From the NCBI GenBank assembly GCA_027619655.1, contig JAQCHR010000002.1:1-34211 (forward strand): DNA of 34,211 nt. Reading direction: 5' to 3'. This document shows positions 10,805 to 32,653 of this stretch, in pieces. Each line of letters starts with the position of its first letter. The first letter of the stretch is position 1. Under the pieces are notes generated by a model. The model did no database searches and was not told the DNA's origin. It worked only from the letters and a program-made list of their open reading frames with translations. Source of the stretch: Pseudomonadota bacterium (GTDB lineage: Bacteria > Pseudomonadota > Alphaproteobacteria > UBA8366 > GCA-2717185). Made by a program: the position numbers and the translations under genes.

Positions 10805-11752
10805 ATGGCGAGCATACTCCCCCTGACGCCGGCGAATATCACCGAAGCTGCAAAGGCGCTGAAGGCCGGAGAACTTGTCGCATTCCCGACCGAAACCGTG
10901 TACGGGCTCGGCGCCGACGCCACCAATGACCGGGCCGTCGCGGCAATCTATGCCGCCAAGGGCCGGCCGCAGTTCAATCCCCTGATCGTCCATGTGCCGG
11001 ATACCGAAGCAGCACGCCACCTTGTGGACCTGCAACCGGTTACAGAACGCCTCGCCGGGCGGTTCTGGCCCGGCGCATTAAGCCTAGTGGCGCCGCGTCG
11101 AACGGGGTCAGGCCTTTCGCTTCTGGTCAGCGCGGGGCTTGATACCGTCGCAATCCGTGTTCCGGCTCCCGAAGGCGCACGATCCCTGCTGCGCGCGGCA
11201 GGTATCCCCGTTGCCGCGCCCAGCGCCAATGTCTCCGGCAGGATCAGTCCGACGACGGCGCAGCACGTGGCTATCGAGCTCGGCGACCATGTCGCCATCA
11301 TTCTTGATGGCGGCCCCTGCGCCATCGGACTGGAATCGACCGTGGTCGATTCCACCAGCGTGCCCCCGACCCTTCTGCGCGGCGGCGGAGTGACAACGGA
11401 AGAAATCGAATTGTTTCTGGGCCTGTCCCTCATGATCGCCGGCAATGACGACGATGCGCCGAAATCGCCCGGCATGCTCACAAGCCATTATGCACCTGAC
11501 CGCCTTCTGCGCATGAACGTGGTCAAAGCGTCCCCCGGCGAAGCGCTGCTGGGGTTTGGACCGGCGCCGGACGCCACGATCAACCTCAGCGTCACCGGCA
11601 ACCTGAACGAAGCGGCGGCGAACCTTTTCGCCAGCCTGCGCCTGCTGGATGCGCTGCCCTGGACGGGAATCGCCGTCATGCCGATTCCGGAAACCGGGCT
11701 GGGCCGGGCCATCAATGACCGGCTGCGGCGGGCAGCGGCGCCGCGCGGCTGA
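10805..11752 (+). CDS. tsaC: L-threonylcarbamoyladenylate synthase (Sua5/YwlC long form: YrdC domain plus Sua5 C-terminal domain)
   Basis: 315 aa. The YrdC-domain signature is ELVAFPTETVYGLGADATNDRAVAAIYAAKGRPQFNPLIVHV, followed by APSANVSGRISPT. The ~110-aa C-terminal extension is as in Sua5. Confidence 0.85.
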   Translation: MASILPLTPANITEAAKALKAGELVAFPTETVYGLGADATNDRAVAAIYAAKGRPQFNPLIVHVPDTEAARHLVDLQPVTERLAGRFWPGALSLVAPRRTGSGLSLLVSAGLDTVAIRVPAPEGARSLLRAAGIPVAAPSANVSGRISPTTAQHVAIELGDHVAIILDGGPCAIGLESTVVDSTSVPPTLLRGGGVTTEEIELFLGLSLMIAGNDDDAPKSPGMLTSHYAPDRLLRMNVVKASPGEALLGFGPAPDATINLSVTGNLNEAAANLFASLRLLDALPWTGIAVMPIPETGLGRAINDRLRRAAAPRG

Positions 11753-11826
11753 ACCGACCATAGACGCCGCTTCTTGCGGCATCCGAGGCGATGCAATACA
11801 TCCTGCTGGGCAGGAAGGAGCCAACC

Positions 11827-13260: not shown

Positions 13261-13288
13261 TCCGGGATTTTAAGGCAACGGAAGGTTC

Positions 13289-17624: not shown

Positions 17625-18470
17625 ATGGACATCAATCGCGGCATATACTGGATCCAGGGCCTAAGCGAAGGCGAGTGGCGGAACCTGCAACGATGCGCCG
17701 ACCACGCCGATGCCACATCCAAAATGGGACCGCTGACCAACGACCGGCGCTACCGGGAATTGCGGCTCGTTCTGGCGCAGGCACAGCAGGGAAGCATCGA
17801 GTACACGACGCTCGTGACGGTTCGCGACGGCAAAGTCATGTCCAATTCATCGCTGCTGGAAACGCTCCTGCCGGCGGCGCCAGCGCCGGTTTCGACCCCG
17901 GCGCCGAAGGTAAATCACCGGCGCTGGCGCGTTGCCGCCCTGTCAGTGGTTTTGATAGGTGCCATTGCAGCCGGCGTTGCCATCGCCGCCAAATTCCCGC
18001 ACATGGCGCTTTCGCTATATGCGTCGCTCGGCTGGCACGCGGAGCCTGCCGCCCCGGTTGTGTTTGCCTCTCGAAACAAACCCGCGGCGACCGGCACCCT
18101 GGAAGAGCGTCTTTTCGACGCCGTGGACGCCAATGACAGTGCGGCGATCCGCGGCTTGATGGCGACGCGGCCGGGGGATCTGCGCCTCGACGAACTCTTC
18201 GTTTTCGTTGATGACGGATGGGGAACAGGGCCCCGCCAGATCACGGACTACGCCCTGCTGGGCGGCTATATGGCTGCGGCCGACGCCCTGCTTGCAATCG
18301 GCGCCACACCGAGCGAATGGCTGCTGACCCTTGCACAACGGCGTGGCGAGGAGGAGCGCCTGAAAGCAGCCGTCAGCCTGCTGAACGAATTCGGCCTTGC
18401 CCGGCCGGTATCATTCAATTCGGCCATCAGCGAAACCGCCCGTGAATTCGAAGGCGAAGTCGCAAACTAG
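17625..18470 (+). CDS. Hypothetical single-pass membrane protein
   Basis: 281 aa, starting 6 nt after the lipoprotein gene. It has a ~90-aa soluble N-domain, a Pro/Ala linker (LPAAPAPVSTPAP), one hydrophobic span (WRVAALSVVLIGAIAAGVAIAA) and a ~150-aa C-domain with a weak ankyrin-like stretch (LFDAVDANDSAAIRGLMA...ALLAIGATP). Confidence 0.5.
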   Translation: MDINRGIYWIQGLSEGEWRNLQRCADHADATSKMGPLTNDRRYRELRLVLAQAQQGSIEYTTLVTVRDGKVMSNSSLLETLLPAAPAPVSTPAPKVNHRRWRVAALSVVLIGAIAAGVAIAAKFPHMALSLYASLGWHAEPAAPVVFASRNKPAATGTLEERLFDAVDANDSAAIRGLMATRPGDLRLDELFVFVDDGWGTGPRQITDYALLGGYMAAADALLAIGATPSEWLLTLAQRRGEEERLKAAVSLLNEFGLARPVSFNSAISETAREFEGEVAN

Positions 18471-18471
18471 G

Positions 18472-18513
18472 TCAGATTTAAAGGGAACCTGTTGCGGTTC
18501 GCTTGAAATCTGA
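18472..18513 (+). terminator. Long imperfect inverted repeat (18-bp stem with 16 pairs, 6-nt loop): putative terminator or regulatory hairpin
   Basis: TCAGATTTAAAGGGAACC-TGTTGC-GGTTCGCTTGAAATCTGA starts 2 nt after the stop codon at 18468-18470. I checked the pairing base by base; the mismatches are at 18480/18505 and 18484/18501. No clean U-tract follows. Confidence 0.4.
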
Positions 18514-18592
18514 TGTGCTATAGGTTTGTGCCCCAGCCCGACAATGACTATGCTGCGGCCAGTTTCCGACACCAGATAGCGAAGGTAGCATC

Positions 18593-19528
18593 ATGGCGAA
18601 TTCCGAACGTTTTTCCGGCGTCATCGCGCCGGCGCTGACCCCGTTCAAGGCCGACTTTTCGCCGGATACGGCGCGTTTCGTGAAGCATTGCAACTGGTTG
18701 CTGGAGCAGGGTTGCGCCGGACTGGCGGTATTCGGCACGACCAGCGAAGCGAATTCGCAATCGGGCGCGGAGCGCAGGGCGCTGCTTGAAGCGCTCGTCA
18801 AATCAGGTATCGACCCCAAGGTCCTGATGCCGGGAACCGGCGCGACCTCAATCACCGAAGCCATCGAACTGACCAAGCACGCGGTCGATCTGGGCTGCAG
18901 CGGGGTCCTGATACTGCCGCCATACTACTACAAGAATGTCGATGACGACGGCATCTTCCGCTTCTTCGACGCGGTGATCCAGCGCATCGCCGATGATCGG
19001 CTGCAGTGCTATCTGTATCATATACCGCCGCAGACCGTATTCGGCTTCTCGCTGGACCTGATCGGCCGGCTGATCGATGCCTATCCGAAAACCGTTGTCG
19101 GCCTGAAAGACAGTTCCGGCGACTGGAACAACATGGCGGCGATCCTGAAAAATTTCCCCGGGTTCAACATGTTTCCTGGCGCCGAGAACCACATGCTGGC
19201 AGGCCTTCGGAACGGCGCCGCCGGCTGCATCACGGCCACGGCGAACGCCAACCCGGCAAAGCTGCGCGAACTGTTTGACAAGTGGCAAACGCCGGAAGCC
19301 GACGACCTGCAGGCGTCGATCACGGCGCTGCGCAAGACCATCCAGAGCTTCCCGATGGTCCCGGCGCTGAAGGAGATCATTGCCCATTTCACCGGCGACA
19401 GCGACTGGAAGATCAATCGCCCGCCCTTCACGCAGATGGGCGCGGAAGAGGTCCGGAACCTGTTCGTTGAACTTGAAAAACACAATTTCACGCTGGAACA
19501 GCCCAAACTGGCCATGGCAGGCAACTGA
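18593..19528 (+). CDS. Dihydrodipicolinate synthase (DHDPS/NAL) family class-I pyruvate aldolase or dehydratase, specificity unknown
   Basis: 311 aa. Motifs are GVIAPALTPF, AVFGTTSEANSQS (GTTGE-like), ILPPYYYK and the Schiff-base lysine context VVGLKDSSGD. Confidence 0.8.
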   Translation: MANSERFSGVIAPALTPFKADFSPDTARFVKHCNWLLEQGCAGLAVFGTTSEANSQSGAERRALLEALVKSGIDPKVLMPGTGATSITEAIELTKHAVDLGCSGVLILPPYYYKNVDDDGIFRFFDAVIQRIADDRLQCYLYHIPPQTVFGFSLDLIGRLIDAYPKTVVGLKDSSGDWNNMAAILKNFPGFNMFPGAENHMLAGLRNGAAGCITATANANPAKLRELFDKWQTPEADDLQASITALRKTIQSFPMVPALKEIIAHFTGDSDWKINRPPFTQMGAEEVRNLFVELEKHNFTLEQPKLAMAGN

Positions 19529-19545
19529 GGCCGTCTCCGGCCGGT

Positions 19546-20562
19546 TTAATCGCCGCGCTTTTTGTCGATTGCGTCCAGCGCGGCCTGCACCCGATCGACA
19601 TAGGCCTTGTCCAGTCCCAGCGACGTCACCAACGCCGGCTGTTCCTGCAGCATCTTCCGGCGCATCGCTTTTCGATCGTCAGTAGACGGCGCGGCGAAGG
19701 TTACGCCCTTCTGCGCCGCTGCCTCGCGGGCGGTGGCCTGATGCCGGGCGGCAAAGCCGCGCATGTCCTCCACTGCCGCTTCCCAGCCTTTCGACAGCAG
19801 CGTGCGCTCTCCATCGGAGAATGAGTCCCAGCGCCGACGGTTCATGATCGGCGTGTACTGGTAAAATACCTGATCGTCGATAAACGCGTATTTTACACCG
19901 GCGCCCCAAAGTGCTTCGTCGCGCACAAAGGAATGGGTCGTCAGGAGCCCGCCGATCAGTCCTTCCTGCATTGCGCTCTTCAGATTGGCGAGGGGCACCC
20001 GCCGCGGCGTCGCACCGAAAACCAGATAGCGGGCCAGATCATCGCTGCCGCCAGGCACCCGGATATTCAATCCCTCCAGATCCGTATAGGATTCCGCTTT
20101 CCGGGCCGACAGGTAAATCTGCCCCAGCCCAAGGTTGATGCGCCGCCCGAGCACCCGTACGTTCAGCGCCTGCTCCAGCGCGCCGTCCAGTTCGCGGCCC
20201 AGCGGTCCGTCGAAGATCGCGATGGCGTCGTCCGCGCTGCGCCCGTAAAATGCCGGCAACGCCGAAACACGGAAATTGGGTACAATACGCGCCACGTGCC
20301 ACCAGCCGGGCACCGCCATGTCGAAAACGCCTTCGGCAACCGCATTGAGGACATTGGCCCCATCGAAGCGGATTTCGTCATGACGCAGTTTAACGACAAG
20401 ACGGTTGCTTGATTCCGCCGCGACCCTGGCGGCCCAGCGCTCCAGCGCCTGATTGCGGATATGCTCTTTTGCGGTGGGCAACGCCACTTCAATGACGGTT
20501 TGCGCGGCCACGGACTGAATCCCGGCGAAAACCAGCGCCACGGCAAAAAATATTGTTTTCAT
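19546..20562 (-). CDS. TRAP-type (DctP-like) periplasmic solute-binding protein, orphan
   Basis: Track ORF 19546..20592 has a GTG start. The ATG at 20562 gives MKTIFFAVALVFAGIQSVAAQ, a signal peptide. Its length and pattern (NIRVPGGS..., C-terminal helical region) are DctP-like. No DctQ/DctM membrane genes are in the window. Confidence 0.55.
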   Translation of the reverse strand: MKTIFFAVALVFAGIQSVAAQTVIEVALPTAKEHIRNQALERWAARVAAESSNRLVVKLRHDEIRFDGANVLNAVAEGVFDMAVPGWWHVARIVPNFRVSALPAFYGRSADDAIAIFDGPLGRELDGALEQALNVRVLGRRINLGLGQIYLSARKAESYTDLEGLNIRVPGGSDDLARYLVFGATPRRVPLANLKSAMQEGLIGGLLTTHSFVRDEALWGAGVKYAFIDDQVFYQYTPIMNRRRWDSFSDGERTLLSKGWEAAVEDMRGFAARHQATAREAAAQKGVTFAAPSTDDRKAMRRKMLQEQPALVTSLGLDKAYVDRVQAALDAIDKKRGD

Positions 20563-20592
20563 TGCAGGGGTTTGCCAGTTTTTCCGCGCCAC

Positions 20593-20693
20593 GAACAGTT
20601 CATTTATCGAGCGGACACTAGGTTTTGCGGTGCAAACTTGTCAATCTGTGTGCCGCCATTGATAAATGCGACAACAAGAGGAAAGAAAACCAA
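20593..20693. promoter_or_regulatory. Divergent intergenic region with AT-rich inverted-repeat elements
   Basis: This ~100 bp lies between the TRAP-SBP gene and the 7-gene operon. ATTGATAAATG (20658-20668) has its reverse complement upstream as CATTTATC (20601-20608, 8/8). It also pairs with TTGTCAAT (20638-20645, 7/8 with ATTGATAA, spacer 12). Confidence 0.3.
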
Positions 20694-22043
20694 ATGGCAT
20701 CGACCGCTTTTGATTCCGAAATTTTCAAGGACCTGTTCGGCACCGAGGCGATGCGGCAGGTATTTTCCGACGAAGCACTACTGCAGAAATACCTGGATGT
20801 AGAAGCGGCCCTGGCCAAGGTGCAGGCGCGCCTGGGGATCATCCCGCAGAATGCCGCCGACGAAATCATCGCCAAGGCAAAATACGAAAACCTGGACATG
20901 GATCGCTACCGTGAGCGCGTAAGTCAGGTGTTCTACCCGATCCTGCCGCTGGTCGAGGGCCTTGTCGCGGCCTGTGACGACGGGTTGGGCGAATACTGCC
21001 ATTGGGGCACGACGACTCAGGATATCATGGACAGTGCCTATTCGATGCAGGTGCGCGAGGCGCTGGAAATCATCGACGCGGACCTCGCTGCGATCGCCGG
21101 ACTGCTGGCGAAACTGGCCCGGGAACACCGTGACACGGTAATGGCCGGACGCAGCCATCTGCAGCAGGCCCTGCCGGTGACGTTTGGCTACAAGGTGGCC
21201 GGATGGCTGTCGGGGATCGAGCGAAGCCGCCAGCGCCTGGCGGAACTGCGGCCTCGCGCGACCATGGCGCAGTTCAGCGGCGCAGCGGGAACGCTCGCGT
21301 CGCTCGGCAAGGATGGATTTGCCATACAGGACGGGGTCGCGGACGAACTGGGCCTGGAGCGGCCGGAGATCGCCTGGCACACCATGCGGGACACCGTGGC
21401 CGAGGTGATCACTTTCCTTGGCCTCCTGACCGGCACGCTCGGCAAGATCGGCACCGATGTCCTGATGCTGATGCAGACCGAGGTCGGTGAGGTCTTCGAG
21501 CCGTTCACTCCCGGCCGCGGCGCCAGCAGCACGATGCCGCAAAAGCGCAACCCCATTTCCTGTGAGTTGATGACCGTCGCCGCACGGGGAGTCCGGCAAT
21601 ACGTCGCAATGGTCCTCGACGGCATGCTGCAGGACCACGAGCGCGCCTCCGGCGGCTGGCATGTGGAATGGATGTCGATCCCGCAAGCCTTCATCCTGAC
21701 CGCCGGGTCGCTGCGCCAGGCGCGCGACATGCTGGACGGGCTGATCGTCGACAAGGACCGGATGCTGCGCAATCTTGAACTCACCAACGGTCTGATCGTG
21801 TCGGAAGCCGTGATGATGGGGCTGGCGCCGCATATCGGGCGGCAGGTGGCCCATGACCTGGTCTACGACGCCTGCCGGGACGCCGTGACGTCGAACCGGC
21901 AATTGTACGACGTGCTTGTGGAGATGCCGATAATAACGGAAAAACTGTCGCGGGACGATATCGCCGCGCTGTGCGATCCTGCAAACTATACCGGCTTGGC
22001 TGGTGAGATGGTTGACCGGCTGCTGGCCAGAACAGGACACTGA
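20694..22043 (+). CDS. Class-II fumarase/aspartase-superfamily lyase (3-carboxy-cis,cis-muconate cycloisomerase / adenylosuccinate lyase-like)
   Basis: Track ORF 20625..22043. I moved the start to the ATG at 20694, which is preceded by AGGAAAG. The superfamily signature GASSTMPQKRNP (GSSxMPxKxN) is present. The N-terminus FDSEIFKDLFGTEAMRQVFSDEALLQKYLDVEAALA is PcaB-like. Confidence 0.75.
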   Translation: MASTAFDSEIFKDLFGTEAMRQVFSDEALLQKYLDVEAALAKVQARLGIIPQNAADEIIAKAKYENLDMDRYRERVSQVFYPILPLVEGLVAACDDGLGEYCHWGTTTQDIMDSAYSMQVREALEIIDADLAAIAGLLAKLAREHRDTVMAGRSHLQQALPVTFGYKVAGWLSGIERSRQRLAELRPRATMAQFSGAAGTLASLGKDGFAIQDGVADELGLERPEIAWHTMRDTVAEVITFLGLLTGTLGKIGTDVLMLMQTEVGEVFEPFTPGRGASSTMPQKRNPISCELMTVAARGVRQYVAMVLDGMLQDHERASGGWHVEWMSIPQAFILTAGSLRQARDMLDGLIVDKDRMLRNLELTNGLIVSEAVMMGLAPHIGRQVAHDLVYDACRDAVTSNRQLYDVLVEMPIITEKLSRDDIAALCDPANYTGLAGEMVDRLLARTGH

Positions 22044-22057
22044 TGGGAGTAACCGCT

Positions 22058-22948
22058 ATGAAACTGGGCTTTGTCGGAACCGGCGCAATGGGGGCGCCGA
22101 TGTCGCAGCACCTGATCGAGCAGGGCCACGAACTCGTGGTCTACGACATCAATGCCGCCTCGATGCAGCCGATCCTGGATGCCGGGGCAACCGCGGCGCA
22201 ATCCCCGAAGGATGCGGCCGACCAGGCGGAGATTGTGTTCGTCAGCGTGCCGAACAACAACGCGGTTCGCACAGCCGTCCTGGGCGCTGACGGCGTTATC
22301 GCCGGCAGCAGGATCCGGCTCTATGTCAGCCTGTGCACCACCGGTTCGCCACTCGCGAAGGAAATCACGACCGCATTGGCGGCGAAATCGATCGTGACCG
22401 TGGAATCGCCGATCAGTGGCGGTCCGCCGGGCGCAGTCGCCGGCACGCTCTCTGTCATGGCCTCCGGCCCGGAAGACGCCTTCCGGGAAGTGGAGCCGAT
22501 GCTGCGCGCGTGGGGCAAGATCACCTATGCGGGGGGCGCACCCGGCGCGGCGCAGGTGCTGAAACTGGCCAACAATATCCTGTCGGCAACGGCGCTGGCC
22601 GCCACCGCCGAGGCCATCGTCATGGGCGTCAAGGGCGGCCTTGATCCCGCCGTCATGCTGCAGGCGATCAATGCCGGCAGCGGCCGCAACAGCGCCACAC
22701 TGGACAAGTTTCCGCGCGATGTCCTGACCCGCAATTTCCAGTATGGCGCGGCAATGGATATCCTGATGAAAGACACGGACCTGGCACTGGCGGAGGGTGA
22801 GGCGCTGGGCGTGGACATGAAGGTCTGCGATCAGGTCCGGAAAATGTTCCGCGCCGCCATCGACGCCGGCATGGGGAAACAGGATATCACCAGCATTGTG
22901 AAGTGCATCGAGCGGCAGGCCGGTGTCGAGATTCCGAAAGTTCGTTAG
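22058..22948 (+). CDS. NAD(P)-dependent oxidoreductase of the 3-hydroxyisobutyrate dehydrogenase (HIBADH) family
   Basis: Track ORF 22043..22948. The ATG at 22058 gives MKLGFVGTGAMGAPMSQHL (Rossmann GxGxxG). The catalytic-lysine region is GAAQVLKLANNIL. Confidence 0.8.
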   Translation: MKLGFVGTGAMGAPMSQHLIEQGHELVVYDINAASMQPILDAGATAAQSPKDAADQAEIVFVSVPNNNAVRTAVLGADGVIAGSRIRLYVSLCTTGSPLAKEITTALAAKSIVTVESPISGGPPGAVAGTLSVMASGPEDAFREVEPMLRAWGKITYAGGAPGAAQVLKLANNILSATALAATAEAIVMGVKGGLDPAVMLQAINAGSGRNSATLDKFPRDVLTRNFQYGAAMDILMKDTDLALAEGEALGVDMKVCDQVRKMFRAAIDAGMGKQDITSIVKCIERQAGVEIPKVR

Positions 22949-22958
22949 GCGTACGACG

Positions 22959-24332
22959 ATGGTTGCGGTTTCCGAACAGAACTTGAAACGCCTTGTCGAC
23001 AGCGAAAGCGGCACGATCAGCCGCGAAATCTTTGTCGATCAGGCGATTTTCGATCAGGAAATGGAACGCATATTCTCCCGCGCATGGCTGTTCGTCGGGC
23101 ATGAAGGCCTGATCCCCAACCCGGAGGATTTCTTCGCATCCCGGATGGGCCGGGATCCGGTGATCCTGACCCGCAACAAACAGGGCGAAATCCTTGTCTT
23201 TTTGAACAGCTGCACCCATCGCGGCATGAAGCTGTGCCGCTACGATCACGGCAACGCCCGCGCCTTCACCTGCCCCTATCATGGCTGGAGTTTTTCCACC
23301 AACCGCGACATCGTCGAGGAACCGGGCGAACTGGTCGGCGTGCCCCATTTCGATGCCGGTTACGGCGACAGGCTGGACCGCAAGCGCTGGGGGCTGGTGC
23401 GCTGCCCGAATGTCGTCGTTTACAAGGGCACGATCTGGGCCAATTGGGATACCGGCGCGCCGCCCTTCCTCGACTGGCTGGGCGACATGCGGCGCTACCT
23501 GGACTTTGCACTGGACCATCGCGACGGCCGCCCCGGCGGATCGGAGGTCATCGGCGGCGTGCAGAAATGGCGCGTGAAGACCAACTGGAAATTCGTCGCG
23601 GAAAATTTCGCCGGCGACATGTACCACGATATCAGCCACCGTTCGGTCGATACCGTGGGAATCGGCCCCGGCGGCAAGGGACGGCGTGACGCGCAGCGGC
23701 CCCGCCTCGCCATCGGCTTCAGCGATCTGGGGCATGGCGTGCTGGGCGAACTGCCGCATACGGTGGAACCGGCATATTCACCGACCTTCGCCAGCGATCC
23801 GGAGGTCGAGGCCTATTACCGCCGGATCTACGACGACAGGGTCCGCCATCTCGGCGACAGGCCGCGCGTCACCAATTCGGTTGGCACGATCTTTCCCAAT
23901 ATGTCCTTCCACAGCCGGCAACCGCGCACCATCCTGATCACCCATCCGATCAGCCCGACGGAAGTCGAACTCTGGCGGCTGTACCTGGTGGATGCGGATG
24001 CGCCGCAACCGGTCAAGGACGCGGCACGTCACTACTACCTGCGCTATTCCGGCCCCGGCGGCATGACCGAGGCCGACGACATGGAAAACTGGACCTATGC
24101 GAGCGAATCCAGCATCGGCAGCGTCGCCCGGCAACAGGATTTCAACTACCAGCTGGCACTCGGCCATGCCAGACCCGCGCCAGGACTGCGCGGCGCGGTG
24201 CAGAGCGGGACCTATTCGGAGGAAAACCAGCGGATTTTTTATCGCCGCTGGGCGCAATTCATGGCCGGCAAGGACTGGTCCGAACTGATGCCGGAAAGCG
24301 ATCCGGCGGAAGTGATCGCCAATGCAGGCTGA
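22959..24332 (+). CDS. Rieske non-haem-iron ring-hydroxylating oxygenase, alpha subunit
   Basis: Track ORF 22923..24332; I moved the start to the ATG at 22959. The Rieske [2Fe-2S] motif is CTHRGMKLCRYDHGNARAFTCPYHGWSF. The mononuclear-iron region is NWKFVAENFAGDMYHDISH. Confidence 0.85.
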   Translation: MVAVSEQNLKRLVDSESGTISREIFVDQAIFDQEMERIFSRAWLFVGHEGLIPNPEDFFASRMGRDPVILTRNKQGEILVFLNSCTHRGMKLCRYDHGNARAFTCPYHGWSFSTNRDIVEEPGELVGVPHFDAGYGDRLDRKRWGLVRCPNVVVYKGTIWANWDTGAPPFLDWLGDMRRYLDFALDHRDGRPGGSEVIGGVQKWRVKTNWKFVAENFAGDMYHDISHRSVDTVGIGPGGKGRRDAQRPRLAIGFSDLGHGVLGELPHTVEPAYSPTFASDPEVEAYYRRIYDDRVRHLGDRPRVTNSVGTIFPNMSFHSRQPRTILITHPISPTEVELWRLYLVDADAPQPVKDAARHYYLRYSGPGGMTEADDMENWTYASESSIGSVARQQDFNYQLALGHARPAPGLRGAVQSGTYSEENQRIFYRRWAQFMAGKDWSELMPESDPAEVIANAG

Positions 24333-24864
24333 TCAACTGGCGGCGCTGGAACGACTGCTGCTGCACCGGGACATCGAGGATGTCATGCATGCGGAAGCCG
24401 AACTGCTGGATGCCCGCCGCTTCGACGAATGGCTGACGATGCTCGCCCCCGATATCCGCTACTGGATGCCGATGATGCGGAACGTGCATTCCGCCCACGG
24501 AGCAGACGAGTTCACGCATGAACAGGCCGATGCCAACTGGATGGATGAGGGGCTGAAAACCCTGACCCAGCGGGTCCGGCAGCTTGCCACCGGCATTCAC
24601 TGGGCGGAGGAGCCGGTTTCCCGGACCACCCATATGGTCAGCAACGTCCGGTTGCTGGCTGTGCGGGCCGGCACGCCCCGCGAAGTAGACACATCCTGTC
24701 GCTTTCTGATCTACCGGAACCGGCAGCAGGACGAAGCCGATACGTTCATCGGCAAACGGCTTGATACGCTACGCCAGACAGATACCGGCTGGAAGATCGC
24801 CCGGCGTGAAATCCGGCTGGACCAGAACGTGCTGCTGGCAAAAAATCTGACAACATTTTTCTAG
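24322..24864 (+). CDS. Ring-hydroxylating oxygenase beta subunit (NTF2/SnoaL-like fold)
   Basis: 180 aa, overlapping the alpha gene by 11 nt. LLHRDIEDVMHAEAELLDARRFDEWLTMLAPDIRYWMP is the typical beta-subunit N-terminal pattern. Confidence 0.8.
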   Translation: MQADQLAALERLLLHRDIEDVMHAEAELLDARRFDEWLTMLAPDIRYWMPMMRNVHSAHGADEFTHEQADANWMDEGLKTLTQRVRQLATGIHWAEEPVSRTTHMVSNVRLLAVRAGTPREVDTSCRFLIYRNRQQDEADTFIGKRLDTLRQTDTGWKIARREIRLDQNVLLAKNLTTFF

Positions 24865-24876
24865 AAAGAGATTTCG

Positions 24877-25383
24877 ATGGTTTATGAAAGCAAGGAAATC
24901 GCCCCGCAACGCTATCGCGAGGAAATCGGTCGATACTACGAGGACTTCACCGTTGGCGATGTTTACGAACACCGCCCGGGTCGGACGATCACCGAGGCGG
25001 ATAACAGCTGGTTCACCCTGTTGACGATGAATACCCACCCGTTGCATTTCGATGCGGAATACGCGGCCAAAAGCGAGTTCGGCAAGCCGCTGGTCAACAG
25101 CGCCCTGACCCTGGCGATTGTCGCCGGAATGAGCGTCAGCGACACCAGCCAGAAGGCCATTGCCAATCTGGGTTGGAACGACATCAAACTGACTGCTCCG
25201 GTGTTCAACGGCGACACCATCTACGCCGAAAGCGAGGTGCTGGAGAAACGCGAATCCTCCTCCCGCCCGACGCAGGGTATTGTCACGATCAAGACAATCG
25301 GTAAGAAGGCCGACGGCACGGTCTTCATGTCCTACGTACGGACCATGCTGATCCCGAAGCGCGGCCACGGCATCGACATCTAG
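24877..25383 (+). CDS. MaoC-like (hotdog-fold) acyl-CoA hydratase/dehydratase
   Basis: 168 aa. FTVGDVYEHRPGRTITEADNSWFTLLTMNTHPLHFDAEYA is the MaoC dehydratase pattern, as in mesaconyl-/itaconyl-CoA hydratase-type enzymes. Confidence 0.75.
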   Translation: MVYESKEIAPQRYREEIGRYYEDFTVGDVYEHRPGRTITEADNSWFTLLTMNTHPLHFDAEYAAKSEFGKPLVNSALTLAIVAGMSVSDTSQKAIANLGWNDIKLTAPVFNGDTIYAESEVLEKRESSSRPTQGIVTIKTIGKKADGTVFMSYVRTMLIPKRGHGIDI

Positions 25384-25414
25384 CCAGACCCGAAGAAGAA
25401 ACGGAGCACAAGCC

Positions 25415-26575
25415 ATGCCGGATCCGGCAAAGAGCAACGACGACGAACGGATGATCCTCGATAGCGTCGAACAGTTCCTCGAACGCGACGTCAAACCCTA
25501 CGCCATGCATCTGGAGCATGAGGATATCTGGCCGGAAGACATCGTCGGCAAGATGGCCGAACTCGGTCTGTTCGGGTCGATCATCCATGAGGAGTATGGC
25601 GGGCTCGGCCTGTCCTGCAGTACCTATGCGAAGATCGTTGAAGTGGTCAGCCGCGAATGGATGTCCCTGTCGGGTATCTTCAATTCGCATCTCATCATGG
25701 CCTCCTGTGTGCAGCGCAACGGCACCGATGCGCAGAAACGCAAATGGCTGCCGAAATTCGCATCGGGCGAAATCCGCGGTGGGCTGGCGCTTACCGAACC
25801 CAATTGCGGCACCGACCTGCAGGCGATCCGCACCCGCGCCGACCGCGACGGCGACGGTTACCGCATCAATGGTACGAAAACCTGGATTTCCAACGGTATC
25901 CACGGTCATTGCTTTGCGGTCATGGTGAAGACAGACCTGAACGCCGAACCGCGCCACAAGGGCGTCAGTGTCTTCCTGGTCGAAAAGGGCGAAGGCTTCC
26001 GACCGTCCCGCAAGCTGGAGAAACTCGGCTACAAGGGCATCGATTCCGCCGAACTGCTGTTCGAGAACTGCCATGTGCCGGCGGAAAACCTGATCGGTGG
26101 CGTCGAGGGACAGGGCTTCCGGCACATCATGGGCGGGCTGGAACTGGGCCGGATCAATGTCGCGGCGCGCGGTGTCGGCGTCTCGCAGGCCGCGCTGGAC
26201 GAATCCGTGAAATATTCCCAGCAGCGCGAAACCTTCGGTAAGCCCATCGCCGAGCATCAGGCGATCCAGCTCATGCTCGCCGATATGGTGACAAGGACCG
26301 AGGCCGCCCGGCTGCTGGTCTACCGGGCCGCCGACGCCTTCGACCGGGGCGAGCGCTGCGACATGGAGGCCGGGATGGCGAAGCTGTTCGCCACCGAAGC
26401 CGCCGTCACCAATTCGATGGACGCGCTGCGGGTCCATGGCGGCTACGGCTATTCCAAGGAATTCCCCGTCGAACGTTACTACCGGGACGCCCCGCTTCTG
26501 ACCATCGGCGAGGGCACCAACGAATTGCAGCGTATCATCATCGCGCGGCAGCTCATCGCCCGTAACCCCATCTAG
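25415..26575 (+). CDS. Acyl-CoA dehydrogenase (standard approx. 385-aa form)
   Basis: 386 aa. Motifs are GGLALTEPNCGTDLQAI, KTWISNG, RVHGGYGYSKEFPVERYYRDAPLLTIGEGTNELQR. Confidence 0.85.
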   Translation: MPDPAKSNDDERMILDSVEQFLERDVKPYAMHLEHEDIWPEDIVGKMAELGLFGSIIHEEYGGLGLSCSTYAKIVEVVSREWMSLSGIFNSHLIMASCVQRNGTDAQKRKWLPKFASGEIRGGLALTEPNCGTDLQAIRTRADRDGDGYRINGTKTWISNGIHGHCFAVMVKTDLNAEPRHKGVSVFLVEKGEGFRPSRKLEKLGYKGIDSAELLFENCHVPAENLIGGVEGQGFRHIMGGLELGRINVAARGVGVSQAALDESVKYSQQRETFGKPIAEHQAIQLMLADMVTRTEAARLLVYRAADAFDRGERCDMEAGMAKLFATEAAVTNSMDALRVHGGYGYSKEFPVERYYRDAPLLTIGEGTNELQRIIIARQLIARNPI

Positions 26576-26586
26576 GAGGCCGAGGA

Positions 26587-27783
26587 ATGTTACCGCTGGC
26601 AGGCGTGCGGGTGCTCGCCGTTGAACAATATGGCGCGGGCCCCTGGGGCACGCAGTACATGGCCGACATGGGTGCCGAGGTCATCAAGATCGAGAACCCG
26701 AAGGATGGCGGCGACATGAGCCGCAGTGTGGGGCCGTTCTTCATCGATAATGGCGAAAGCAGTTCCGGCAGCCTGTTCTTCCAGAGCATCAACCGCAACA
26801 AGCGCAGCCTGACGCTGGACCTCGGCACGCCGGAAGGGCAAGCGGTGCTGCACGACCTCGTGCCGACCGCTGATGTGCTGGCCTGCAACCTGCGCGGCGA
26901 CGTACCGGAAAAGCTGGGGCTCACCTATGAGACACTGGGTAAGCTCAACCCGCAGATCGTCTGCGCCTTTCTCACGGCCTATGGCCGCGAGGGGCCGCGC
27001 CAGAAATGGCCGGGCTATGACTACCTGATGCAGGCGGAGGCGGGCTATTTCTCGCTGACCGGCGAACCGGAAGGCAACCCGACACGCATGGGCCTGTCCA
27101 TCGTCGACCTGATGACCGGCCTGGGCATGGCCTATACCGCCATATCCGCTGTCCTCGCCGCGCGTGCGACGGGGTTGGGGCGCAATGTCGATGTGAACCT
27201 GTTCGACCTGGCGATGACAAACCTGTCCTATCCCGGCACCTGGTACCTGAACACCGGCCATAACCAGGGACGCGAGCCACGGTCCGGCCACCCGGCCCTG
27301 ACGCCCTGCGCGCAATACAAGACGAAGGACGGCTGGGTTTTCCTGATGTGCAACAAGGAGAAATTCTGGCCGGCCCTGTGCAACGCCATCGGGCGGCCCG
27401 AATGGGGAAGCGACCCGCGCTACCTGACCTTCAAGGACCGGCTGGAGCGCCGCCCGGGAATCCAGGACATGCTGGACGAACAGCTTTCAACGAAGACGAC
27501 CGGGGAATGGCTCAAAATCTTCGCCGGGACGGTCCCCGCAGCGCCGATTCTCGACGTGGCCCAGGCGCTGGAAAACCCGTATGTCACCGGCAATGGCAAG
27601 ATCCAGACGTTGCAGCACCAGAGCGGCCGTGAATTCCGGATGCTCGATGCACCATTCCACGCAGGCGAAGCGACCCCGAACCGGCCGGGCCCGGAACTGG
27701 GCCAGGATACAGATGCGCTGCTGGGAGAACTGGACTACGACGCGCAGAAAATCGCGAAACTGAAGGACGCCAAAATCGTCTGA
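26587..27783 (+). CDS. Family-III (CaiB/BaiF) CoA-transferase
   Basis: 398 aa with AGGAGG upstream. The N-terminus is LAGVRVLAVEQYGAGPWGTQYMADMGAEVIKIENP. The catalytic-Asp context is GLSIVDLMTG. Confidence 0.85.
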   Translation: MLPLAGVRVLAVEQYGAGPWGTQYMADMGAEVIKIENPKDGGDMSRSVGPFFIDNGESSSGSLFFQSINRNKRSLTLDLGTPEGQAVLHDLVPTADVLACNLRGDVPEKLGLTYETLGKLNPQIVCAFLTAYGREGPRQKWPGYDYLMQAEAGYFSLTGEPEGNPTRMGLSIVDLMTGLGMAYTAISAVLAARATGLGRNVDVNLFDLAMTNLSYPGTWYLNTGHNQGREPRSGHPALTPCAQYKTKDGWVFLMCNKEKFWPALCNAIGRPEWGSDPRYLTFKDRLERRPGIQDMLDEQLSTKTTGEWLKIFAGTVPAAPILDVAQALENPYVTGNGKIQTLQHQSGREFRMLDAPFHAGEATPNRPGPELGQDTDALLGELDYDAQKIAKLKDAKIV

Positions 27784-27795
27784 TCGGCGACTCGA

Positions 27796-28584
27796 TTACA
27801 AGGTGGCAAGAAACGCCCACACTTCGGCATTCACGGCACCGGGAAACTCCCAGAACGGAAAACCGCCGCCATCTTTGATCGTCATACGGCGGCAGTCGGG
27901 CAACAGTGCCGAAATCTCGTCAGCGGCCTGAAGGAAATCTGGCAGGTCGTACGCCCCGTTCATGATCAGCACCGGTTTCCGGAACTGGCGCAGGTCATCG
28001 TCCGGCGGCGTTATGGGACCGATAAGCCCGGCGTCCAGCCACGGTGCGCCCTCAAATTCCTCTATGATCTGACGCTGCGCGGCGGCGCGACATTCCTCCG
28101 GCCGATCCCGCATTACGGCGAACCAGCCGCCCTCCTCCCACCAGCGTTTCCGGGCCGCCGCCATGCCCTCATTCCGGGCTGTATCGGCAACCCGGGCCAG
28201 AACATCCGACACTCCCGGCATGGATCGTCCCGGAAAAACCGGTCCTTCGAGAACAAGCGCGGAGAACCGGTCCGGATCATGGACGGCCAGCAACAATCCC
28301 GCCGCCGCGCCGAGATGCGTTCCCCAGAAGACGGCATCCCCGGCACCGGCATCCCGCATCGCGCCGGCGATGCTTTCGGCATATTCCGCGACGCCATAAG
28401 GGCCCGGCATGGCGGACGACAGGCCGTGGCCCGGCAGGTCGATCAACATTAGTCGGTGCGTCGCGCCAAAAACCGGAATCTGCGCTGAAAACGCGCGCCG
28501 GTTCTGTGAAACGCCGTGCACGATGACGAGCCAAGGCGCCTTCGGACCCGCCGTGTCAATGATTTCGAACGCCGCCGCTGGCAT
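27796..28584 (-). CDS. Alpha/beta-hydrolase-fold protein with a non-canonical catalytic triad
   Basis: 262 aa. The fold pattern is WLVIVHGVSQN...LIDLPGHGLS...AVFWGTHLGAAAGLLLAVHDPDRFSALVLEGP. The nucleophile elbow reads G-T-H-L-G (28309-28323) instead of G-x-S-x-G. The start is 6 nt after the ppd stop. Confidence 0.7.
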   Translation of the reverse strand: MPAAAFEIIDTAGPKAPWLVIVHGVSQNRRAFSAQIPVFGATHRLMLIDLPGHGLSSAMPGPYGVAEYAESIAGAMRDAGAGDAVFWGTHLGAAAGLLLAVHDPDRFSALVLEGPVFPGRSMPGVSDVLARVADTARNEGMAAARKRWWEEGGWFAVMRDRPEECRAAAQRQIIEEFEGAPWLDAGLIGPITPPDDDLRQFRKPVLIMNGAYDLPDFLQAADEISALLPDCRRMTIKDGGGFPFWEFPGAVNAEVWAFLATL

Positions 28585-28590
28585 GCCGCG

Positions 28591-29733
28591 TCAGGCTGTC
28601 GAAGCAAGGAAAGCCTTGAAGCGCCGCGCCACCGCATCGGGTGACACGGTCGGACGGCCCAGCTTTTCGAGGCTGCCCGGCTGGATGCGGATATGCACCA
28701 TATGCGGGCCATCGCTCGCGCAGGCCGCCTTCAGGGCCTTTTCGAAGCCACCCAGATCGTCTGCGGAAGCCGCGCTGGCATAGCCGCAGGCCAGCGCGAT
28801 CCTGGCAAAGTCCACGCCGCCGGATACGGTCGCCTGCCCGCCCGTGGAATCATGCACCCCGTTATCGACCAGCACGTGGATCAGGTTCCGGGGCTCCTGC
28901 GCGCCGATGGTCGCCATGTTGCCCATCTTCATCAGGGCGGCGCCATCACCGTCGATCACGACGATGGGCCGGTCCACATTGACGGCGATCCCAAGGCCCA
29001 TTGCGCTGGCGCTGCCCATGGAACCGACCTGGTAGATATGCTGTTTGCGGTCATCGATGGTGAACAGTTCGCGCCCGCTCTTGCCGGTGGTGCAGACGAT
29101 TCCCGCGTTGTCCGGCGTCACCTTGAGCAACCGCTCCAGCGTGTCGCAACGGGTCGGGCGATCGCCGCCTGTCGTATAGTCGTTCAGGTTGTCGCCCGGC
29201 GTCGCCAGCGCCGGCGTTTCCTCCAGCCCCTCCGGCGCCACCGACCCGTTCGCCATGATGAAGGCGTAGGGCAGTTCCGCTGAATCCATATGCGCAAATG
29301 CCCGGTCCAGCGCCGGCGCGATATCCGCGTCCTCGCTGGGGAACGGTTCGTTGGGCACGCCGATATCGTTCAGCAGGACATCGGTAATCTGCCCCATCAG
29401 CACATGCTGCGGTTCGTCCTTCAGCCCCGGCTGACCGCGCCAGGTGACGATCATCAGGGTCGGGATCCTGAACGGATGATTCAGCGAGGTGAGCGGGTTG
29501 ATAGCGTTGCCGAGCCCCGAATTCTGGCAGATCAGCACCGTCTTGCGTCCCGCCAGCCAGGCGCCGGCGGCGATTGCCGTCGCCTCGCCCTCGCTTGCCG
29601 CCGGGACATAGCGGATATCCTTGCGGGTGATGACGCGGTTAATGACCGGCGTCAGGAACGAGCACGGCACGCCCGTATAGAAATCGTACCCGGCGGCCAG
29701 TGCCTGGTCGAGAAACGCATCGGCCTTGATCAT
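28591..29733 (-). CDS. ppd: Phosphonopyruvate decarboxylase (fused ThDP enzyme, sulfopyruvate/phosphonopyruvate decarboxylase family)
   Basis: Track ORF 28591..29784. I place the start at the ATG at 29733, which overlaps the upstream stop (ATGA). The N-terminus is [29 protein letters not shown]. The ThDP-binding motif is [39 protein letters not shown]. It lies immediately downstream of pepM. Confidence 0.85.
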
Positions 29734-31391
29734 ACGATGTTCCTCGCCCGGGCGAGGTCCAGCGCGTCGTCGATATCCAGCCACTGGCCGGTGATGTACT
29801 GCACCCGGATAGCATGTCCCGCCGTAACCAGCCTGTTCAGCAGGACCGGCACGTCGCCCTTTTCAAGGCTGCCATCGGCTTCCATCGCCGCCAGTTCGGC
29901 AGCGACGGCTTTGGCGCCTGCCTCGCTCAGCTTCAGCAGCCCGACCCATTCACCGGTCGCCGCGTCAGCGCCGACATCGCGACCCGCGGCCACAAGGCTG
30001 ACCGGCGCATCGTCCAGGTAGTCGGTGGAAAACGCGCGGTCGCCGACCACGAGATCGCGGACAAGCCCTGCTTCGGACTGTTCGCGATCCTGCCACAACG
30101 CATCGGCGACGATGACGATGTCGCCTTCCGCCTTGAGCAGCGCATCGAGCATGTAGTCGCGGAACAGGATGTCGCCATAGGATACCAGCGTCGGCTGGTT
30201 CAGCGCCTTGCGCGCGCAATTCAGCGAGTAGAGCTCGCCCGTTTCCGCGTAGCGGTCATTGTCGACGGTCGCGACGGAGACAAGGTCGATGGCTTCCTTC
30301 TTATAGCCGCGCACGATCGTGACATCGCGGATGCCGGCGCCGTTCAGCATGGACAGCTGGCGGCGCAGCACGGGCTGCCCCCTTACATCGACCATGCATT
30401 TCGGGCGATCGTCAGTCAGGGCGCCCAATCGTTTGCCGCGCGATGCCGCCAGCACAACCGCGCCGTAACCCGCGCCCCGCTTTGGCAAATAGCGCGCCTC
30501 GGCCGCCGCCAGTTCGTCATTGCCGGTGATCTTGAAGACCTCACCCACCGTCGGGATGGTATCTTCCACATCGGCGAGGGTTTCGGTGTGGAAGATCGTT
30601 TCGCTGATATGCCGCATCGCCTGCATTGCGGCGCGCATGTTGTGATTGGCCCAGATGACCAGCGAAATATCGTGGTCGCGGAATTGCTGGGTCGGCGTCG
30701 CGTAATACATGGTCGGCACGATCACGACCGGGCAGCGGTTGCCCCACTCCTTGCAGAAGGCAAAGATTTCATCCGGTTCCGCGATCTTGGAATGAATCAG
30801 GACGGCATCGGCGCCGGCGGCATGATACGCCTCGCCGCGGCGCAGCGCCTCATCCACGCCCCAGCCGGCGATCAGTGCCTCGATCCGGGCGATGACGCAG
30901 AAATCATCGTCAAGCTGGCTGTCCTTTCCGGCCTTGATCTTGCCGCAGAACTCGTCGATATCCGCCAGCGGCTGCGCCCGGCCGATAAAGCTGTTTGTCT
31001 TGGGGAACAGCTTGTCCTCGATACAGACGGCGGCGATGCCGCGCTGCGACAACTTGGTCACCAGCCGGCGCATGTTATTGAAATTGCCGTATCCCGTATC
31101 GCCATCGACCAGGATGGGGATCGACGTCGAATCGGACATGAACTCCAGCACTTCCAGGACCTGGGTCCAGGATGCTTCATTATTGTCGCGAACACCCAGC
31201 GCGGCGGAAATACTGAGCCCCGAAGCCCAGACTCCCTTGAAGCCGACCTCCTCCACGATCCGCGCGGACAGGCCGTTATGGGCCTCCATGATAAAGGCCA
31301 TTTCCGGGTCGGTGAGAAGCTGGCGGAAGCGGCTGGTTTTGGATTGCGGCGGCTGCGCGGGTGGCACGATTCGAACAGTATTTGCAGTCAT
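29730..31391 (-). CDS. pepM: Bifunctional phosphoenolpyruvate mutase (N-terminal ~300 aa) / LicC-PntC-type nucleotidyltransferase (C-terminal ~240 aa)
   Basis: 553 aa. The PepM hallmarks are [21 protein letters not shown] and [12 protein letters not shown] (EDK-X5-NS). The C-terminal domain has [23 protein letters not shown] (a G-x-G-x-R-L-like NTP loop) and ends [15 protein letters not shown], as in LicC-like cytidylyltransferases. Confidence 0.9.
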
Positions 31392-31501
31392 GGTCTAATA
31401 TCTGCTTTCCTAGAGTACCGGGAGGACGTCTCATCGAGATAATCACGCCCGGCAGTGTTAGATCTTGTGACAATAAATACGCGATCCCGGAGAAAATAAA
31501 A
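31392..31501. promoter_or_regulatory. Divergent promoter region between the pepM operon and the second CoA-transferase gene
   Basis: This 110-bp, comparatively AT-rich spacer lies between two divergent start codons. GGAG sits 11 nt upstream of the ATG at 31502. I recognise no specific operator. Confidence 0.3.
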
Positions 31502-32653
31502 ATGGCGCTTTCACATCTCAAGGTTCTCGACCTCACCTCGAATCTGTCCGGGCCGTATTGCGCCATGATCCTGGCGGATCAGGGCGCCGACGTCATCAAG
31601 ATCGAGCGCCCCGAGGTCGGCGATGACATGCGGCTGACGCCACCCTTTATCGGCGGCGAAAGTGCCCCGTTCATGCTGGCGAACCGGAACAAGCGCAGCG
31701 TCATCATCGACCTGAAAACCGCGGCCGGCGTGGCCGATTTCAAGCGGCTTGCGGCCAACGCCGATATCATGATCGAGAATTTCAAGCCCGGCACCGCGGA
31801 ACGCATTGGCATTGGTTACGAAACCATGCATGCCCTGAACCCGCGCCTGATCTACTGCTCGATCTCCGGCTTCGGGCAGACCGGCCCCTATGCGAAACGC
31901 GGCGGTTTCGACCTCATCAGCCAGGCGATGACCGGCCTTGCGGCAATCTGCGGCGACGAGGATGGTCCGCCGCACCGGTTGCCGATTCCCATTACCGACC
32001 TGTGTGCCGGCATGAATGGCGCAATCGGCATACTGACCGCCCTGGCCGCGCGGGAAAAAACCGGCAAAGGGCAACAGGTCGATATCTCGCTATTCGAATC
32101 GGGAATCTCACTTGGTTTCTATGAGGCCGCGTCATATTTCGCCACCGGCCAGGCGCCGGAGAAGCTGGGCCAGCGCCATCGCGGCAGCGCGCCTTACCAG
32201 ATATTCCCCACCGCCGATGGTCATATCGCCATCGGTGCGGCGGCGCAGCGGTTCTGGAGCCTGACCTGCGAGGTCCTGGATTGCGCGGAACTGATCGATG
32301 ACCCTCGCTTCGTCACCAAGGCGGACCGGGTGGCGAACAACAAGGCGCTGGTCGCCATTCTGGCAGAAAGGCTGGTCACGAAAACGACCATGGAATGGTT
32401 CCGATTGCTTGACGCCAGGGGAATTCCCGCCGGCCCCGTCATGAACCATGCGGAACTGTTTGCCGACCCGCAGACGGAAGCGCGCAACATGGTTGTCGAT
32501 ATCGATCACCCGGCGGCGGGCGCAACCCGCGTTTTGGGCACGCCCATCAAACTGTCGGGTACGCCGGGCGGGGTCAAACGGCCTGCGCCGCGGCATGGCG
32601 AACATACGAGCGAAATTCTGGGGGATTCGCCGTCAACAGCGGCAGCGGATTAA
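31502..32653 (+). CDS. Family-III (CaiB/BaiF) CoA-transferase, second copy (distant paralogue)
   Basis: Track ORF 31361..32653; I moved the start to the ATG at 31502. The N-terminus is LKVLDLTSNLSGPYCAMILADQGADVIKIERP. The catalytic-Asp context is PIPITDLCAG. Confidence 0.85.
   Translation: MALSHLKVLDLTSNLSGPYCAMILADQGADVIKIERPEVGDDMRLTPPFIGGESAPFMLANRNKRSVIIDLKTAAGVADFKRLAANADIMIENFKPGTAERIGIGYETMHALNPRLIYCSISGFGQTGPYAKRGGFDLISQAMTGLAAICGDEDGPPHRLPIPITDLCAGMNGAIGILTALAAREKTGKGQQVDISLFESGISLGFYEAASYFATGQAPEKLGQRHRGSAPYQIFPTADGHIAIGAAAQRFWSLTCEVLDCAELIDDPRFVTKADRVANNKALVAILAERLVTKTTMEWFRLLDARGIPAGPVMNHAELFADPQTEARNMVVDIDHPAAGATRVLGTPIKLSGTPGGVKRPAPRHGEHTSEILGDSPSTAAAD

Follow-up and report, generated by a model that had tools for sequence, protein, structure and literature searches.

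A candidate composite operon of one alphaproteobacterial genus, in which a Tad1-clade lyase and a Rieske oxygenase cassette precede an Ich-Mcd-Ict-type module

Here we describe a block of seven closely packed plus-strand genes (positions 20694-27783) in a 34,211-nucleotide stretch of DNA from an alphaproteobacterium (GenBank contig JAQCHR010000002.1, positions 1 to 34,211), hereafter referred to as the window. From 5' to 3', the block encodes a class II lyase of the aspartase/fumarase superfamily, Tad1/3C8T clade (20694..22043; Pfam Lyase_1 and ADSL_C), and a HIBADH-type beta-hydroxyacid dehydrogenase (22058..22948; NAD_binding_2 and NAD_binding_11), the first gene of a cassette that continues with the alpha subunit of an HcaE/BphA-like Rieske oxygenase of an uncharacterised subfamily (22959..24332; Rieske and Ring_hydroxyl_A) and the corresponding beta subunit (24322..24864; Ring_hydroxyl_B, and NCBIfam NF007479 at 187.8 against a cut-off of 145). 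These are followed by an Ich-like MaoC hot-dog hydratase, i.e. of the itaconyl-/mesaconyl-C4-CoA hydratase type (24877..25383; MaoC/MC_hydratase and NF038241), a Mcd-like acyl-CoA dehydrogenase (ACAD), i.e. of the methylsuccinyl-C4-CoA dehydrogenase type (25415..26575; three ACAD Pfam domains), and an Ict-like family III CoA-transferase (26587..27783; CoA_transf_3, 366 bits).

Spacings between consecutive genes are 14, 10, -11, 12, 31, and 11 nt, the negative value reflecting an 11-nt overlap of the Rieske beta open reading frame (ORF) with that of alpha. All seven ORFs begin with ATG, purine-rich runs resembling Shine-Dalgarno sequences lie 5' of six of the seven genes, with a weak one before Rieske alpha, and no promoter- or terminator-like site within the block exceeds shuffle expectation. 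An earlier reading of the window (the original prediction) had reported seven plus-strand genes with these spacings, most with their own Shine-Dalgarno sequence, and had assigned families from short motifs. The ORFs were reproduced and all quoted motifs were recovered, including GASSTMPQKRNP in the lyase loop (residue 276), GFVGTGAMG and KLANN in the HIBADH protein (residues 4 and 169), CTHRG and CPYHGW in Rieske alpha (residues 85 and 105), and GEGTNELQ in the ACAD (residue 365); Pfam and NCBIfam searches agree with the family calls for all seven proteins. The ORFs of 18.5-32.6 kb include neither a regulator nor a thiolase, a CitE/HpcH lyase, or a ring-cleavage dioxygenase; the original prediction had noted the missing regulator for this interval and the other absences for the operon. 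The block is not a binning or assembly chimera, since its arrangement recurs, over 18400-30957 and with 157 differences, on an independent 18.5-kb contig from a 2025 estuary metagenome. Whole or in part, the stretch is present in aquatic, estuary, and marine metagenomes of 12 studies; a small-share sediment run (X20) was not counted towards habitat.

Conservation was followed by a DNA search of 40 relatives and by mapping of proteins onto fetched loci. The full seven-gene order occurs only within the genus of the window, where it was shown complete in one relative (G002) at 89% DNA identity and 82-98% protein identity, with near-identical gene spacings as read from rough ORF calls. A second genome of the genus (G004) has a six-gene arrangement of HIBADH, Rieske, MaoC, ACAD, and CoA-transferase genes with no lyase, and dctP, the gene for a TRAP solute-binding protein, lies 130 nt from its HIBADH gene. 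A family-wide model search found no Tad1-like lyase in this assembly or in that of a third member of the genus, G001 (both 84-85% complete). Judged by gene content, the lyase can be lost while the other genes remain.

In two sister genera, the backbone consists of dctP, the lyase gene, a slot, maoC, acad, coaT, the pair ppd and pepM, and a second CoA-transferase gene, coaT2. The slot measures approximately 100 nt in two genomes (G005 and G007), where the lyase gene is followed directly by maoC, and in six others it is filled by 1.3-6.5 kb of unrelated genes: a LysR gene with a DAO flavoprotein; two PhyH dioxygenases with a crotonase; a crotonase alone; an esterase with a luciferase-like monooxygenase; a crotonase with an amidohydrolase; or a luciferase-like monooxygenase with amidohydrolase, GGT, EamA, and esterase genes. 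Several of these slot genes lie on the opposite strand. The HIBADH-Rieske cassette is missing from all other genera, which retain the lyase and the CoA module, and none of 80 loci with Rieske-alpha relatives (49-68% identity) carries the CoA module, only alpha and beta being conserved in them. Because the slots of the sister genera differ and the Rieske relatives never adjoin the CoA module, the cassette, on this comparison, occupies a hypervariable slot in a genus-specific manner. Three genera and three other families share the maoC-acad-coaT trio at 68-98% identity; in these three families of the order it recurs at 68-88% identity without the lyase. By distribution, the block is composed of three evolutionary units and is not one conserved set.

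It is important to weigh this mosaic against the view of the original prediction, which had treated the seven genes as one coherent pathway. A dedicated, undescribed pathway for a single substrate, e.g. an arylsuccinate or an aromatic/alkyl-substituted dicarboxylate, would proceed through Rieske oxygenation and dehydrogenation, the lyase, and then CoA activation, desaturation, and hydration. Such a pathway would account for the tight spacing with one overlap and no internal promoter or terminator signal, the order and spacing kept in G002, the single conserved promoter element 5' of the block, and the RNA-library contigs that fall on all seven genes (the latter two described below). We nevertheless consider it unlikely, given that the lyase was not found in G004 and G001 while the other six genes stay, that other genera keep lyase and module without the cassette, that no linkage to the module is seen for the Rieske relatives, that a canonical cluster for small C5 acids matches the module at 57-71% identity, and that the window has no ferredoxin, reductase, or ring-cleavage gene. 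The seven-gene order, whose conservation had been put forward as a check, is kept in G002 but not in the two same-genus genomes in which no lyase was found or in the other genera without the cassette; a single coherent pathway is not supported by the comparison, as the full order is genus-limited and, in sister genera, lyase and module are either directly adjacent or have unrelated genes between them.

The last three genes resemble a known degradative module. A tblastn search of annotated plasmids identified, on a replicon of Azospirillum sp. TSH58, a cluster of genes for a CoA ester lyase, MaoC, MmgE/PrpD, ACAD, CoA transferase, and GntR, flanked by DctP and TRAP permeases. The window proteins are 69% (MaoC), 70.9% (ACAD), and 57% (CoA-transferase) identical to those of this cluster, in which the counterpart of the window ACAD comes right after MmgE/PrpD. 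As it comprises the same five gene families as the characterised itaconate/methylsuccinate cluster ich-mcd-mmgE-ict-ccl (Gonner et al. 2025, PMC12290011), the TSH58 cluster has the published architecture. In the window, the ACAD gene lies between those for MaoC and CoA-transferase; throughout the order, counterparts match it at 78-97% identity. The MaoC protein is the sole strong Ich-like gene product of the genome, has NF038241 (RipB_Ich) as its best model, and shares 59.7% identity with a protein that PGAP names RipB/Ich and that belongs to a ripC-ripB-ripA-like Burkholderia cluster; best PDB matches of the CoA-transferase include SUGCT. By homology, we read 24877-27783 as an Ich-Mcd-Ict-type lower module whose substrates would be branched C5 dicarboxylates. 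The substituted-succinate logic that the original prediction had seen in the CoA-transferase, ACAD, and hydratase is upheld. Its remark that the gene combination was unfamiliar stands for the whole set, which matches no published cluster, but not for the last three genes, which are of the Ich-Mcd-Ict type (PMC12290011); a match to a published catabolic cluster, which it had named as grounds for rejection, exists for these three of the seven genes at 57-71% identity to the Azospirillum cluster.

A number of observations count against the module assignment. All three proteins fall below NCBIfam equivalog cut-offs: the MaoC scores 238 bits where 340 are required by RipB_Ich, the nearest equivalogs of the CoA-transferase are all far below cut-off, and NCBIfam holds no Mcd or Ict model. 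Furthermore, neither a CitE/HpcH citramalyl-CoA lyase nor an MmgE/PrpD isomerase is encoded at the locus or elsewhere in the window. Genes of both families are found elsewhere in the genome, including 12 HpcH/CitE genes, the best RipC-like one (contig C30; 210 bits, cut-off 375) having no related neighbours, and 16 MmgE/PrpD genes. This number of paralogues in a 3.7-Mb, 88%-complete metagenome-assembled genome suggests a broad di- and tricarboxylate chemistry. In one of the other families of the order (G038), a RipC/Ccl-like CitE gene lies directly beside the same maoC-acad-coaT trio. The trio in those families (L098; L099, i.e. G038:C2:1958000-1977900, about 7560-14730) also adjoins an HMG-CoA-lyase-like gene and two more ACAD genes. 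The published ich-mcd-mmgE-ict-ccl cluster is reportedly carried by P. aeruginosa (PA0878-PA0883) and C. necator (Sasikaran 2014; Gonner et al. 2025, PMC12290011).

The lyase (20694-22043) was compared with solved structures and with homologues of the class. Its best PDB matches are Tad1, the trans-aconitate decarboxylase of the fungus Ustilago (469.5 bits), and 3c8t, an uncharacterised protein (468.5 bits), followed by 3-carboxy-cis,cis-muconate cycloisomerase (CMLE, or PcaB) of P. putida (370 bits) and CreD (290 bits). Alignment with Tad1 is gapless over 438 residues at an offset of 43, with identity at about half of the positions (a hand count gave 53 in the first 102 columns). The catalytic Arg360 of Tad1, together with Trp365 and Trp369, corresponds to Arg317, Trp322, and Trp326, Thr362 is replaced by Ser319, and the SS loop (GASSTMPQKRNP) is retained. 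Within the class, 300 sampled genomes yielded 24 homologues, for which flanking regions were fetched; G279, an unpublished genome that came up in this search, was left out of all claims. At 43-48% identity, 10 of 13 loci lie beside pcaH/G/C/D, compared to none of the 10 loci at 55-62% identity and none of nine loci from the family of the window. Fourteen alignment positions distinguish the clade of the window lyase from the pca-linked proteins; Tad1, read off the pairwise alignment, has the window-clade residue at eight of these, a conservative replacement at three, a PcaB-like residue at one, and a residue of its own at two. On the strength of these signature positions and of the absent pca linkage, the lyase is, by sequence, a member of a non-PcaB clade with which Tad1 groups, an affiliation that the original prediction had missed. 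The neighbours of the homologues at 55-62% identity were considered as a clue to function and dropped, as they are not conserved.

The alternative that the lyase is the PcaB of a scattered protocatechuate/beta-ketoadipate pathway, its position in the operon being incidental, starts from its score with the short pcaB model TIGR02426 (371.9, cut-off 355.75), of which it is the only match in a genome that has pcaHG. Contig C33 (L157) carries at 740-4018 a quiC-like dehydroshikimate dehydratase gene, pcaH, pcaG, and a shikimate/quinate dehydrogenase gene (aroE), a quinate-to-carboxymuconate cluster with no pcaB alongside; candidates for PcaC (132.5, cut-off 155.7) and PcaD (252.8, cut-off 255.85), both near their cut-offs, are found on other contigs. 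This alternative is improbable in our judgement. The lyase fails the full-length CMLE equivalog NF006554 (516, cut-off 595) as well as NF004631 (240, cut-off 371), true pca-linked homologues are 43-48% identical and differ at the 14 signature positions, where Tad1 sides with the window clade, and the gene is conserved beside the TRAP binding protein, not beside pca genes. Furthermore, the assemblies of G004 (84% complete) and G009 (92% complete) contain pcaH but no lyase of this type, and a different lyase paralogue is common to all 17 genomes of the family.

Membership in the Tad1 clade raises the possibility that the lyase decarboxylates trans-aconitate and feeds the adjacent module, a tentative assignment that we regard as possible rather than probable. 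The TIGR02426 score, the uniqueness of that match, and the presence of pcaHG speak against it. So does the residue equivalent to Tad1 Ser320, which is alanine (Ala277) in the window lyase and in all nine family homologues, the Tad1 mutant S320A being inactive (PMC11880804, from which the key residues were taken); G, A, or S occupies position 277 in the wider lyase clade. In addition, no PrpF-type aconitate isomerase gene lies near the lyase gene, and outside the family of the window the lyase clade has no linkage to the CoA module. The literature searched contained nothing on a bacterial route from trans-aconitate to itaconate.

For the cassette (22058-24864), database matches are more distant. 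All NCBIfam equivalogs are under cut-off for the HIBADH protein, and its best PDB matches are a 2-(hydroxymethyl)glutarate dehydrogenase (3cky; 167 bits) and a tartronate semialdehyde reductase (162 bits). Rieske alpha scores 342 with the HcaE equivalog (cut-off 830) and has HcaE as its best PDB match (309 bits), with BphA also at approximately 300; Cys85/His87/Cys105/His108 and Asp220/His223/His227 are invariant in 15 homologues. Its subfamily is large and unnamed, and extends over Alphaproteobacteria, Betaproteobacteria, and Actinobacteria. The window contains no ferredoxin or reductase gene, and neither a short-chain dehydrogenase/reductase (SDR)-type cis-diol dehydrogenase gene nor a ring-cleavage gene stands beside the Rieske pair; candidate partners elsewhere in the genome are a reductase on contig C268 (40% identity) and a Fer2 protein on contig C134 (41%). 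The 13 closest Rieske-alpha relatives have TctC receptors, a [2Fe-2S] ferredoxin, a ferredoxin reductase, and IlvD/Edd-type dehydratases nearby, and a distant HIBADH-like gene (26-34% identity) neighbours 23 of the Rieske loci at about 50% identity and none of the 13 closest. A home context for the cassette was sought in the sister genera and not found, because Rieske homologues there (64-68% identity) have no common neighbours and no HIBADH gene.

Further Rieske loci were encountered. The nearest relatives from cultured organisms, in Achromobacter (L009, L007; 10001-14600), have their own reductase and Fer2 genes with TctC and IlvD/Edd-type genes near, and this type of set is an uncharacterised three-component oxygenase family. 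Contig C256 (L159) of the window genome carries at 145-5230 another HcaE-like Rieske alpha/beta pair (346 bits), with genes for a TauD-family dioxygenase and a pyridoxal-phosphate aminotransferase on its flanks; it, too, comes without ferredoxin and reductase. In a genome of the same genus (G003:C471:2-3069), a Rieske alpha/beta paralogue is located immediately 5' of pcaH-pcaG.

The gaps of 10-14 nt and the 11-nt overlap imply that the cassette is co-expressed with the rest of the block in this genus. This tight packing is itself a point against regarding the cassette as cargo, as it may be functionally integrated. Given the co-expression that the spacing implies, we retain among the less probable alternatives a recruited upper pathway, in which Rieske oxygenase and HIBADH protein would supply the module, e.g. 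through hydroxylation of a methyl branch of a C5/C6 acid followed by beta-hydroxyacid oxidation. An Ustilago oxygenase acts on itaconate and may serve as a functional analogue. Oxygenases and hydratases are over-represented in the slot of the relatives (PhyH twice, luciferase-like twice, DAO, and crotonase three times), which is what interchangeable upper pathways would lead one to expect. Cassette and module are translationally packed together, and the nearest solved relative of the HIBADH protein uses 2-(hydroxymethyl)glutarate, a hydroxymethyl-branched dicarboxylate. That PDB similarity is weak (167 bits), however, and Rieske alpha belongs to the aromatic HcaE/BphA type. An aldehyde dehydrogenase is lacking, relatives often have their slot genes on the opposite strand, and the literature searched offers no experimental precedent. 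On balance, we give this alternative little credence. A bolder version, which we view as a long shot, is a new aerobic route in which the Rieske oxygenase and HIBADH protein would be wired between a bacterial Tad1-type enzyme and the Ich-Mcd-Ict module, such that a tri- or dicarboxylate taken up through TRAP transport, e.g. trans-aconitate, would be decarboxylated to itaconate, and itaconate or a related branched acid would additionally be oxygenated before or instead of CoA-dependent breakdown. If true, bacteria would have an equivalent of the branch by which fungi oxidise itaconate, and the substrate of a Rieske oxygenase would be a C5/C6 acid that is not aromatic; nothing on a combination of Rieske oxygenase and itaconate was present in the literature searched.

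Upstream of the block lies a divergent gene for a DctP-family TRAP solute-binding protein (19546..20562, minus strand; Pfam DctP, and NCBIfam TRAP_S1 at 71.6 against a cut-off of 50), followed by a DHDPS-family gene; dctP adjoins the lyase gene in seven relatives, including G002, G005, and G007, and the two genes stay paired throughout the family. By alignment, the 131-bp divergent spacer between dctP and the block contains a conserved operator/promoter-like element without assigned strand (20613..20649), GGACACTAGGTTT..N..AAACTTGTCAATCTGT, which holds a TTGTCA/GATAAA pair 17 nt apart. The element is kept in the same-genus genomes G002 and G004, and its cores ACTA.GTTT and TTGTCAAT are retained in a sister genus (g2). 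No regulator gene is found near it among the ORFs of 18.5-32.6 kb. In G004 the element sits directly 5' of the HIBADH gene, and because it persists in this genome, where the lyase is missing, one promoter/operator region appears to serve whichever gene is first.

We favour, with moderate confidence, the interpretation that the block is a genus-specific composite operon of three evolutionary units placed behind one conserved divergent promoter. The first unit, for which homology and synteny were found, would function as a lower module of the Ict-Mcd-Ich type, in which the family III CoA-transferase would activate a branched C5 dicarboxylate (e.g. itaconate or methylsuccinate) with succinyl-CoA, and the MaoC protein would hydrate itaconyl- or mesaconyl-C4-CoA to citramalyl-CoA. 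Since the operon has no citramalyl-CoA lyase, cleavage would have to occur in trans, presumably through one of the 12 HpcH/CitE gene products encoded elsewhere. The second unit comprises the Tad1-clade lyase and the TRAP binding protein, and may convert imported trans-aconitate to itaconate, feeding the first. The third unit is the HIBADH gene and two-subunit Rieske oxygenase, inserted in a slot that differs by lineage; its ferredoxin and reductase would come from elsewhere, and it would either oxidise a further substrate or represent co-transcribed cargo. Taken together, the predicted overall function is most likely uptake and catabolism of branched C5/C6 di- or tricarboxylates, possibly through a route from trans-aconitate via itaconate to citramalyl-CoA.

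At its 3' boundary, the block meets a convergent alpha/beta-hydrolase-fold gene (27796..28584, minus strand; Pfam Abhydrolase_1) 12 nt from the coaT stop codon, and this is followed by ppd, pepM, and a second family III CoA-transferase gene, coaT2 (31361..32653, plus strand). The Pfam domain of coaT2 covers residues 50-416 and its true start is probably near 31502; the protein is 72-90% identical to counterparts located 3' of the module in nine relatives. The hydrolase-fold gene is restricted to the genus of the window, and the phosphonate pair ppd-pepM lies between both CoA-transferase genes in a sister genus too (27796-31391; L091, L092, L096).

Contigs from metatranscriptome libraries of one estuary study fall on all seven genes of the block. 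None falls on 27463-28416, in the region of the convergent hydrolase gene, which a DNA run does cover. These data are Logan assembled contigs, in which strand, transcript ends, and a single transcript are not resolvable, and the libraries can contain DNA; they lend weak support to expression of the block. One RNA-library contig (X19; 18974-19785) spans the convergent stop-to-stop junction of the DHDPS and DctP genes (19528/19546), reflecting either read-through, antisense RNA, or DNA carried over into the library. Because this contig bridges even a convergent junction, bridging of genes by contigs is uninformative.

The block is a lineage-specific mosaic built on a pathway type that is already known. 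Itaconate, for which a bacterial degradation module is known, serves as a platform chemical and occurs as an immune metabolite and as a product of fungi; the literature searched described no enzyme by which bacteria form it from trans-aconitate, an abundant plant acid. In the locus and in its uncultured aquatic alphaproteobacterial family, an itaconate-type module is linked with a TRAP binding protein and a lyase of the Tad1 clade. The locus also provides a clean natural case of a variable slot, with oxygenase and hydrolase cassettes swapped before a conserved lower pathway, and here an uncharacterised Rieske subfamily gains a defined genomic partner. If the lyase is an ordinary PcaB and the cassette is cargo, the locus is an ordinary one.

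Comparison with known systems places these units individually. The benzylsuccinate bbs operon includes a crotonase-type hydratase, an SDR, and a thiolase. With it, the window block shares the logic of a family III CoA-transferase, an ACAD, and a hydratase acting on a substituted succinate, but those three bbs components have no place in the block, whose sequence affinity is to the C5-acid module. Like the three-component dioxygenases HcaEF and BphA, the window pair has both an alpha and a beta subunit, Rieske motif and catalytic domain being intact; it differs from them in having a HIBADH partner in place of ferredoxin, reductase, cis-diol dehydrogenase, and ring-cleavage enzyme. The lyase agrees with PcaB/CMLE (P. 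putida, 1RE5) in superfamily, length, passing of TIGR02426, and a genome with pcaHG, and departs from it in being 43-48% identical to the pca-linked homologues of the class, in belonging to a clade never linked to pca genes, and in scoring below NF006554. Compared to Tad1 of Ustilago maydis (PDB 9H4E; PMC4720413, PMC11880804), it is found in a bacterial host and catabolic setting, has alanine at the position of Ser320, and has no Adi1/PrpF isomerase partner, whereas the clade-separating residues and a gapless alignment are common to both, and itaconate, the product of Tad1, is the substrate type of the module adjacent to the window lyase. Finally, relative to the published itaconate clusters, the window is without MmgE/PrpD and Ccl genes at the locus, its MaoC lies below the RipB/Ich cut-off, and its module is preceded by a Tad1-clade lyase and Rieske/HIBADH genes, both absent from those clusters; in common with them it has the three families MaoC hydratase, ACAD, and family III CoA-transferase, arranged in matching order, and, as in Azospirillum, a TRAP binding protein is encoded close to the block.

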